From a virus (taxonomy: Duplodnaviria; Heunggongvirae; Uroviricota; Caudoviricetes): DNA of 46,405 nucleotides. Location: IMG/VR virus record IMGVR_UViG_2687453454_000004. One strand, given 5' to 3'. Each line of letters starts with the position of its first letter. Position 1 is the first letter of the stretch. Of the stretch, positions 542 to 2,765 are shown in pieces. The notes beneath the pieces are model-generated. The model saw only the letters and a list, made by a program, of their open reading frames with translations, was not told the DNA's origin and searched no databases. The position numbers were made by a program, and so were the translations under genes.

Positions 542-1579
542 TTAACGCTTATCCGCCACCAGTTTGAGCGCGTGTTCCAGCACATTAATGTCTGCACCCG
601 CTTTATGGGCATTTTCACTTAAATAACGCCGCCACTGCCGCGCGCCAGGAATACCCTGGAACAAGCCCAACATATGCCGGGTAATATGGCCGAGATACGT
701 CCCCTGGCTGAGTTCACGCTCAATGTACGGATACATGGCGCGCACTACCGCCACCGGATCGGCATCGGTATCCGAGGAACCAAAGATCTCCCGGTCTACC
801 GCCGCCAGAATACCCGGATTCTGATACGCCTCGCGCCCGACCATCACGCCATCCATATGTTGCAGGTGTGCTTTGGCCTCTTCCAGCGACTTGATACCAC
901 CGTTAATCGACATTGTCAGATGCGGAAAGTCACGCTTCAGTTGATACACACGCGGATAATCGAGCGGCGGGATTTCACGGTTTTCTTTCGGGCTTAACCC
1001 CGAAAGCCAGGCTTTACGTGCGTGGATGATGAACATCTCACACTCGCCTTTGCCGGAAACGGTATTGATGAAATCGCAGAGAAATTCATAGCTGTCCTGG
1101 TCGTCGATGCCAATACGCGTTTTCACCGTCACCGGAATCGACACCACATCGCGCATCGCTTTCACGCAGTCGGCAACCAGCTGCGCATTACCCATCAGAC
1201 ACGCACCAAACATGCCGTTCTGCACCCGGTCAGACGGGCAGCCGACATTCAGGTTGATCTCATCATATCCGCGCGCTTCTGCCAGCTTTGCACACTGCGC
1301 CAGCGCCGCCGGATCGCTACCGCCCAGTTGCAACGCTACCGGATGTTCTTCTTCACTGTACGCCAGATAATCACCTTTACCGTGAATAATCGCCCCTGTG
1401 GTCACCATTTCGGTATACAGCAACGTATTGCGGGAAAGCAGACGCAAGAAATAGCGGCAATGTCTGTCCGTCCAGTCGAGCATAGGAGCAATACTAAACC
1501 GAGAACTCCAGTAAGCGCCAGTTTTTTCAGGCATCACGCTGGTTTGATTAGTTTTCTGTGTTTCAGGATTATCGTGCAT
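542..1579 (-). CDS. dusA: tRNA-dihydrouridine synthase A; 5' end supplied by the prophage
   Basis: 345-aa ORF with TIM-barrel Dus signature (NLNVGCP...GGI); start codon at 1577-1579; first ~35 codons are about 80% identical to a displaced copy at 45232-45335. Confidence 0.9.
1476..1579. other. attL region (dusA 5' end, phage-derived replacement segment containing the crossover)
   Basis: Homologous to 45232-45335; longest identical block cagttttttcaggcat (1519-1534 vs 45275-45290); exact crossover point not resolvable by eye. Confidence 0.5.
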
Positions 1580-1612
1580 TTTTGAACATTTCAGGCTATT
1601 TTTCTCGCGTTA

Positions 1613-1647
1613 GGTTCCCGCACAGGTTCCCACGCTTTATGGGAACC
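1613..1647. repeat. Candidate integrase arm-type sites (AGGTTCCC x2 direct plus GGGAACC inverted)
   Basis: ggttccc at 1613-1619 and 1625-1631, gggaacc at 1641-1647, between the dusA start and int; related motifs at 45169-45188 on the other prophage end. Confidence 0.4.
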
Positions 1648-1667
1648 CGAAATAACGAGGTCGTGTA

Positions 1668-2765
1668 ATGGCGTACTATAACATAGAGAAACGACTAAAA
1701 TCCGATGGCACACCACGCTATCGCTGTAATGTGATTATCAAAGAAAAAGGTGTTATCACTTACAGGGAAAGCAAAACATTCCCTAAACATGCTCATGCCA
1801 AAACATGGGGCGCACAGAAAGTGATGGAATTAGATCTATATGGCATTCCATCATCAAATGCTGTTGACGGACTTACAGTCCGTGACTTACTACACAAATA
1901 TTTAAATGACCCAAATGCCGGAGGTAAAGCAGGCCGTACTAAAAGATATGTGCTGGAACTGCTTATGGATAGTGACATCTCCGCGATCAAACTATCTGAA
2001 CTGACAGAAAATGACGTAATTGAACATTGCAGGCTAAGAAACAACGCTGGTGCAGGCCCAGCAACAGTCAGCCACGATGTTAGTTATCTTGGCAGTGTTC
2101 TGGATGCGGCAAAACCTGTATACGGAATCAATTACACATCAAACCCGGCGAAAAGCGCTCGTCCATATCTACTTAAACTCGGTTTGATTGGTAAATCAAA
2201 CCGTCGTAATCGTAGACCAGCATCTGATGAACTGAACATGCTCATTGAAGGCCTTCAACAACGATCTACTCATAAATGCTCAAAAATTCCGTTCGTTGAT
2301 ATCCTCAAATTTTCTGTGTGGTCCTGTATGCGAATCGGAGAAGTATGCCGGTTACGATGGGAAGATCTCGACCAGGAACAAAAATCTATACTAGTAAGAG
2401 ACAGGAAAGATCCACGTAAAAAGGAAGGCAACCATATGAAAGTTGCCTTGCTTGGGGAAGCCTGGGATATCGTCCAGCGACAACCCAAAAAATCAGAATT
2501 CATTTTTCCATATAACAGCACTTCTGTTACCGCAGGATTTCAGAGGGTAAGAAGCAAATTAGGTATTAAAGATCTGAGATACCATGATTTGCGTAGAGAA
2601 GGGGCAAGTCGCTTATTTGAGGCTGGTTTTAGTATTGAGGAAGTCGCTCAGGTTACAGGGCATCGTTCATTAAACGTGCTATGGCAGGTATATACCGAAC
2701 TGTATCCGAAATCTTTACATAATCGTTTTGAAGAACTCCAAAGGAGCAGAAATAAGACCTCTTGA
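1668..2765 (+). CDS. int: Tyrosine recombinase / phage integrase (dusA-targeting type)
   Basis: 365 aa; ATG with GAGG RBS; C-terminal catalytic motifs (MRIGEVCRLRWEDL, HDLRREGASRL, VTGHRSLNVLWQVYT); adjacent to and divergent from the dusA 5' end. Confidence 0.9.
   Translation: MAYYNIEKRLKSDGTPRYRCNVIIKEKGVITYRESKTFPKHAHAKTWGAQKVMELDLYGIPSSNAVDGLTVRDLLHKYLNDPNAGGKAGRTKRYVLELLMDSDISAIKLSELTENDVIEHCRLRNNAGAGPATVSHDVSYLGSVLDAAKPVYGINYTSNPAKSARPYLLKLGLIGKSNRRNRRPASDELNMLIEGLQQRSTHKCSKIPFVDILKFSVWSCMRIGEVCRLRWEDLDQEQKSILVRDRKDPRKKEGNHMKVALLGEAWDIVQRQPKKSEFIFPYNSTSVTAGFQRVRSKLGIKDLRYHDLRREGASRLFEAGFSIEEVAQVTGHRSLNVLWQVYTELYPKSLHNRFEELQRSRNKTS

Follow-up and report, generated by a model that had tools for sequence, protein, structure and literature searches.

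Which protein reads the short GGTTCCC repeats that lie at both ends of a prophage inserted in dusA, and what do the repeats do? The window, the whole stretch of 46,405 nucleotides analysed here, is E. coli chromosome with a lambdoid prophage of about 43.8 kb inserted in dusA. The original prediction placed repeats of this type at both att junctions and proposed them as arm sites of the integrase. The coordinates are exact, with GGTTCCC at 1613-1619, 1625-1631 and 45171-45177 on the plus strand and at 1641-1647 on the minus strand. The left cluster lies between the start codons of dusA and int, and the right pair is separated by 43 bp from the end of the prophage. Based on comparison of sequences and predicted structures, we estimate a probability of about 80% that the five copies of the motif (Table 1) are arm-type sites bound by the prophage's dusA-specific tyrosine integrase (Int).

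Attachment sites of the dusA prophage

The int module of the window is 97% identical at the DNA level to that of phage mEp460 and several other dusA-integrating phages, including the Stx phage 1720a-02. The start codons of dusA and int are 88 bp apart (1580-1667). As in dusA-associated integrase elements generally, int adjoins the dusA 5' end, the insertion lies there, a replacement 5' end is supplied and the core is conserved. A dusA 5' target, a replacement 5' end, a 7-base core, a divergent int and a PrtN-like recombination directionality factor (RDF) across attP are shared with the published dusA elements (PMC4482086, PMC8409611, PMC6328086). The gene next after int is dinI, and a LexA-box-like palindrome (TACTGTATACAAATACAGT) at 2778-2812, between the int stop codon and dinI, suggests SOS control of the phage dinI. 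In the early region, a C4 antisense RNA (82.8 bits) was identified with Rfam beside the isrK Hfq-binding RNA (59 bits) at 38395-38583 on the minus strand, both above the gathering score.

Table 1. Features of the attachment regions and the recombination module, with positions in the window
Feature	Position	Strand	Sequence and remarks
dusA	542-1579	-	Pfam Dus, E 8e-105; start codon CAT 1577-1579
attL core	1476-1487	+	Overlap TCGAGCA 1476-1482 and half-site TAGGA 1483-1487; from mEp460 attP and attB
Phage-supplied replacement dusA 5' end	1483-1579	-	97 nt; identical to mEp460 save 2 substitutions; between core and P' sites
Four phased ATT(T) units	1568-1607	+	ATTATCGTGC ATTTTTGAAC ATTTCAGGCT ATTTTTCTCG, exact 10-bp phase; over the dusA start codon, to 4 bp before P'1
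P'1, candidate arm-type site	1612-1619	+	AGGTTCCC; invariant in 7 E. coli and phage variants
P'2, candidate arm-type site	1624-1631	+	AGGTTCCC; 12 bp from P'1; invariant in the 7 variants
P'3, candidate arm-type site, inverted	1641-1648	-	GGGTTCCC read on the minus strand; 19 bp between its end and the int ATG
int, dusA-associated tyrosine integrase	1668-2765	+	365 aa; Pfam PF00589; ATG 1668; divergent from dusA
Int N-domain	residues 1-58		Evidence for Int as a whole: PF00589, AF2 and Foldseek
Int core-binding domain	residues 71-170
Int catalytic domain	residues 187-346
rdfN-like RDF gene	43447-43728	+	PrtN/PyocinActivator family, PF11112, E 3e-23; across attP from int
P1, outer P-arm candidate arm-type site	45170-45177	+	AGGTTCCC; homology block shared with mEp460 begins here
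P2, inner P-arm candidate arm-type site	45181-45188	+	AGGCTCCC, one mismatch; 11 bp from P1; identical in mEp460
attR core	45227-45238	+	Half-site TCCTA 45227-45231 and overlap TCGAGCA 45232-45238; from mEp460 attP and attB
Displaced native dusA 5' end	45239-45335	-	97 nt to the native ATG, left at attR; joined to 1330-1483 it is 100% identical to K-12 dusA

The intact attP of the mEp460 virion reads GGGTTCCCaatAGGCTCCC, 43 bp, TCCTA TCGAGCA TAGGA, a 97-nt dusA mimic, tAGGTTCCCgcacAGGTTCCC, 9 bp, GGGAACCC, 19 bp and the int ATG. Joining the window ends at TCGAGCAT produces an attP of the same type with five substitutions, none of them in a motif, and all five copies are intact in mEp460. The rebuilt attB (1330-1483 plus 45240-45420, 335 nt) shares 100% identity with the uninterrupted dusA of K-12 MG1655 and others. 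Because the mEp460 attP and the rebuilt attB fix the junction, the overlap is TCGAGCA, and in attP it is enclosed by TCCTA and TAGGA, a perfect 5-bp inverted repeat. The module of phage 1720a-02 is 96.7% identical to that of the window and contains the same 7-base core; deletion of int in this phage abolished attP formation (PMC6328086). The proposal that the motifs would flank the crossover of the circular attP like arm-type sites agrees exactly with the arrangement in mEp460, with a layout kept in relatives and with a motif that follows the N-domain of the integrase. The motif is repeated on both arms outside the crossover, and AGGTTCCC is unrelated to the core half-sites TCCTA and TAGGA, as is typical of arm-type sites.

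The first 32 codons of the hybrid dusA are phage DNA. The replacement 5' end lies wholly within the P' arm, and the dusA 5' end is repeated at 45233-45345 with about 80% identity to the phage-supplied copy. In some E. coli lysogens (L094, L095 and L097: GF4, O157 strains), the first ~20 nt past the attL core read like the bacterial dusA allele (TGGTGCAACGCTAAACCGA) and not like the mEp460-type mimic at 1484-1510 in the window, suggesting either mimic alleles or conversion between the mimic and the host copy.

Over the whole window GGTTCCC occurs as often as expected by chance (5 observed, 4.91 expected), yet four of the five copies are at the att junctions; the fifth (28721) is deep inside the prophage, far from both. 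The 457-bp reconstructed attP holds all three exact AGGTTCCC 8-mers and five of the 17 window matches with at most one mismatch, against an expectation of 0.17. Four places in the window have at least three copies of any one 7-mer within 40 bp, whereas first-order Markov simulations average 0.21 such places per window. Although the global count equals expectation, a chance origin of the motifs is ruled out by their clustering, the match between both junctions and the family-wide conservation. Besides the LexA-box-like site at 2778-2812, the other triple clusters consist of three copies of TGACTGGTTC (37470-37508), which looks iteron-like, and three of ATTTTGG (33972-34002).

Of 5426 complete E. 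coli genomes, 741 carry the P' arm region at ≥90% identity. The stretch 45080-45239 is matched in 652 E. coli genomes, and 207 match most of it. In about 445 of the 652, a number estimated from a spread of the listed matches, the match starts at 45169-45171 (query 90-92), the outer edge of P1. Homology with mEp460, PhiR40_1, PhiR55_1 and 1720a-02 starts at the same positions, and this boundary is the same in five phage records. The cargo differs right up to P1, with a SocA/Panacea-domain ORF pair in the window and other genes in mEp460. Since the conserved block starts at P1 in the phages and in most of the 652 genomes, the recombination module ends at P1. No motif position varies among seven variants from E. 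coli and phages; the sole two variable positions of the 88-bp interval fall in the P'2-P'3 spacer, and substitutions accumulate in the dusA mimic. The cargo pair itself consists of overlapping ORFs at 43989-44977 on the minus strand, one with a SocA/Panacea antitoxin domain (E 2e-18). The corresponding slot between rdfN and the P arm holds unrelated genes in mEp460, which indicates a variable moron position just outside attP.

Layout and motifs in diverged relatives

The attPs compared come from phage genomes that are free or have defined ends, with integrases sharing 25-69% identity with the Int of the window. Ten diverged attPs were read by eye, and the layout is kept clearly in eight and weakly or at a non-dusA core in two. 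A direct pair lies beyond the core, followed by a direct pair and a third copy just before int, and each element has a motif of its own. Clear examples are CAGCACCCC in YeP2, AGTCTCCC / AGTACCCC in Salinivibrio SMHB1, the GGTGCCCCA family in Shewanella M16-3, TTGCTACA in Ralstonia YL4 and Pseudomonas E220, (T)GGTACA in Burkholderia DC1 and GTGTACCA in Marinobacter PS6. The motif of Rhizobium Y3_1 (GTACGAC) is weak. Klebsiella Kp4887-1 has AGGACCCC / AGAACCCC and CAGCACCCC, with NNACCCC variants, around a core that is not dusA-like. The P pair is located at -255/-244 from the int ATG in YeP2 and at -254/-243 in the window, and the equivalent of the P1/P2 pair is at the same place in YeP2 and SMHB1. 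The Int of Kp4887-1 (L088/L089) shares 52% identity with that of the window, the arms are arranged alike and a PrtN-like gene lies upstream. The ends of the record, presumed to be the core, are unlike the dusA core, and this element may have another target.

An automated scan allowing at most one mismatch recovered P-side copies in six of 11 attPs, the window and mEp460 included (13 matches, 3.5 expected). No P copies were recovered in the other five, where other repeats were picked or the P copies have more than one mismatch. In L003, L005, L006 and M16-3 the scan settled on other phased repeats, in Kp4887-1 it did not detect the P copies, which are diverged, and for these attPs the reading by eye was used.

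A wider survey covered 70 loci from a scan of species-representative genomes, using the 100 bp before int and 1190 control windows. An exact 8-mer direct pair at 10-13 bp spacing precedes int in 32 of the 70 loci (46%), compared to nine of the controls (0.8%). At 7/8 matches the pair is found in 87% of the loci and 14% of the controls. The spacing of the pair is mostly 11-12 bp among the loci. A clear third copy is present in 22 loci, inverted in 13 and direct in nine. The original prediction had named lack of conservation in related elements as the result that would speak against it. The outcome was favourable, with the layout kept across relatives and the motif sequence varying with the integrase. 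A conserved position combined with a sequence that co-varies with the integrase is what arm-type sites are expected to display among relatives.

Candidate readers of the motif

Identity of the Int N-domain tracks motif similarity when the rest of Int is controlled for (partial r 0.51; reverse 0.21; a value reached in 0 of 300 label permutations), a correlation over 40 loci and 780 pairs that is supportive rather than conclusive because the pairs are not phylogenetically independent. Four elements with CAGCACCCC share 80-94% identity in Int residues 1-62 and 68-78% elsewhere, while pairs with different motifs share 55-77% and 62-93%, respectively. Residues of the predicted strands vary by motif group, for example RYRCTVGVK..YIYRENRTF with CAGCACCCC versus RYRCNVIIKEKGVITYRESKTF in the Int of the window. 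The truncated Int (144 aa) of Erwinia tracheiphila L060 and the Mixta Int share 93% identity outside the N-domain and 74% inside it, with an arm motif of GTACACC in L060 and CAGCACCCC in Mixta, a possible exchange of an N-domain/arm cassette.

The AF2 model of Int, built with 116 database homologues (pLDDT 87), contains strands at residues 2-10, 16-26 and 29-38 and a helix at 41-58; a linker of low confidence then leads to a helical core-binding domain and the catalytic domain. The N-domain has a pLDDT of about 90 in this model, and the same three strands and helix were predicted for the isolated N-domain (pLDDT 89). Three strands and a helix are the topology of the arm-binding domains of lambda and Tn916 Int. 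In a Foldseek search with the Int model, full-length lambda Int (1z1g_A) aligns over 366 columns (E 4e-10) and lambda Int 75-356 over 296 columns (E 4e-8), and Tn1549 Int is also matched. Searched alone against the PDB, the N-domain has no significant Foldseek match, the best being generic small beta-alpha folds (E 0.04), and the lambda and Tn916 N-domains are absent among the top 50. Profile searches of PDB sequences retrieved no solved relative for the N-domain and only catalytic-domain matches for full-length Int. The commonest weak Pfam match, Arm-DNA-bind_4, was found in 13 of 63 N-domains (best E 2e-4, all below the gathering score), and the N-domain of the window itself has no Pfam match.

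In a lambda-Int-like mechanism, the N-domain (residues 1-58) would read AGGYTCCC, and the core-binding and catalytic domains would act on the core, which is unrelated in sequence to the arm motif. The excised circle would carry an attP of about 234 bp, running through P1 and P2, 43 bp, the core, the 97-nt dusA copy, the ATT units, the direct P'1 and P'2 and the inverted P'3. Int would bridge arms and core in the intasome. With such bridging, integration (attP x attB) and excision (attL x attR, with the PrtN-like RDF) would differ in structure, and the arm sites used may differ between the two directions.

The motifs might instead be binding sites of the PrtN-like RDF, a reading that we consider improbable. 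RdfN is the RDF of dusA-specific islands and is required for their excision (PMC8409611), and, as stated for Apl (PMC7498355), the direct repeats that RDFs bind are spaced by about one turn of the helix. The RDF also travels with the module, sharing 97% identity with mEp460 gp25, an 'excisionase', and 55% with the RDF of YeP2, whose motif differs. Because the RDF co-varies with the module in this way, co-variation with the element as a whole cannot single out Int. Motif similarity, however, follows the Int N-domain after control for the rest of Int. Moreover, int is the only gene always beside the repeats, and the layout is kept in distant family members that lack a PrtN gene next to attP (YL4, DC1, E220, PS6 and Y3_1). 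RDF sites, as known from lambda Xis, usually lie on one arm. The same is true of KplE1 TorI (PMC2951348), and instead of one-arm direct repeats at helical phase, the motif here occurs on both arms and in both orientations.

The phased ATT units fit an RDF better. Of the 70 related loci, 16 have three ATT in 10-bp phase, as against none of the 1190 control windows, and Vibrio and Colwellia relatives have TTGAATTnCG repeats at 10 bp in the same place. From their sequence, these units are candidate sites of the PrtN-like RDF or a candidate intrinsic bend. The IHF consensus WATCARNNNNTTR has four matches in the window, none in the att regions, and no exact match in attP; the phased ATT/A-tract units might stand in for an IHF-type bend, or be RDF sites.

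A purely transcriptional role is still less probable than RDF binding. Some regulator would bind the motifs as operators of divergent int and dusA promoters, with no part in recombination. P'1-P'3 do cover 37 of the 88 bp between the start codons, and P'2 and P'3 together make a 7-bp palindrome around 9 nt of spacer, resembling a dimer operator. However, the P pair lies about 1.4 kb downstream of rdfN, behind two convergent cargo ORFs and 43 bp from the crossover, where no gene starts. The start of the conserved block exactly at P1 in hundreds of genomes, the direct third copy in nine of 22 relatives and a sigma-70 consensus scan of 1400-1800 that found no promoter also argue against pure operators. 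A regulatory role added to recombination already belongs to the arm-site explanation.

A hairpin of P'2 and P'3 in RNA or DNA, serving as terminator, attenuator or stabiliser of int or dusA transcripts, can be set aside: GGTTCCC-N9-GGGAACC can pair and 1605-1667 has a minimum free energy of -16.7 kcal/mol, but this fold is no better than those of shuffled sequences (z = -0.39; equalled or bettered by 62 of 200 shuffles), the scan of 1400-1800 detected no terminator-like site, the loop in relatives ranges from 8 to more than 30 nt with a third copy that is often direct, and the motif sequence is kept in direct copies which, like the P-arm pair, a hairpin leaves unexplained. An Rfam search identified no RNA family at the att regions.

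Comparison with known modules and implications

Read as arm-type sites of Int, the repeats resemble those of lambda in several respects. There are five short copies unlike the core, two and three across the arms, with neighbours spaced by roughly one helical turn. As modelled, the integrase also consists of three domains, the N-terminal one small, and lambda Int 1z1g aligns end to end with this model. The span of about 234 bp is close to that of the lambda attP, which is about 240 bp. In lambda the P and P' sets are mutually inverted, whereas all copies in the prophage but P'3 point one way. The two P sites are adjacent here, compared with those of lambda, which are split by accessory sites, and the 5' end of int, not its 3' end, abuts attP. 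Further differences from lambda are the 97-nt host-gene mimic between the core and the P' sites, an attP with no IHF consensus, an RDF that is PrtN-like rather than Xis-like, and an N-domain with no detectable sequence similarity to that of lambda.

The IntS-TorI module of KplE1/HK620 is similar in another way. In both, int reads away from attL, the region upstream of int is attL with its P' arm sites, and the uncoupled RDF gene is found at the opposite end of the prophage. Panis et al. (2010, PMC2951348) described attL of KplE1, with its arm sites, as overlapping the promoter of intS, and Int there represses its own gene, a negative autoregulation in which the RDF also takes part. The 88-bp interval, with P'3 19 bp from the int ATG, resembles this geometry. 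KplE1 targets a tRNA gene (argW), whereas the target here is the 5' end of a protein gene, and the integrase belongs to another family.

Both 1580-1667 and the first 97 nt of dusA come from the phage, so any dusA promoter close by would have to come from it too, as the original prediction argued. The int promoter and any phage-supplied dusA promoter must lie in the 88-bp interval, which is mostly filled by the P' sites. By analogy with KplE1 IntS, bound Int probably represses int.

Earlier work on dusA integrases by Farrugia et al. (2015, PMC4482086), Durand et al. (2021, PMC8409611) and Balasubramanian et al. (2019, PMC6328086) established the core or 21-bp att repeats along with the RDF. The word 'arm' is absent from these three papers, and a full-text literature search for 'arm-type' with 'dusA' retrieved generic mentions only. 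The literature searched contained no arm-site description and no binding or mutational data for the dusA-integrase family. New for dusA integrases are the proposed arm sites and the way they co-vary with the N-domain, while the core and the RDF were known before. Integrases built in this way would be expected to have arm-type sites, and the result is conceptually unsurprising.

The full attP of about 234 bp with its five candidate arm sites would define the minimal substrate for integration vectors. It also gives precise prophage boundaries and would explain why mosaic exchange halts exactly at P1. The pairs of N-domain and motif variants offer a ready data set for work on how arm sites are recognised and on integrase/attP pairs that are orthogonal but share one chromosomal target.

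The module is also present in Stx-converting phages that insert in dusA. A more far-reaching proposal, which we regard as rather unlikely, is that the P' sites are a shared operator, with Int at P'1-P'3 modulated by the RDF at the adjacent ATT units, that represses int and sets expression of the hybrid dusA, and that the N-domain and the arms form an exchangeable specificity cassette across the family. If the shared operator is real, about 14% of complete E. coli genomes would have a tRNA-modification enzyme of the host linked to the prophage's recombination state.
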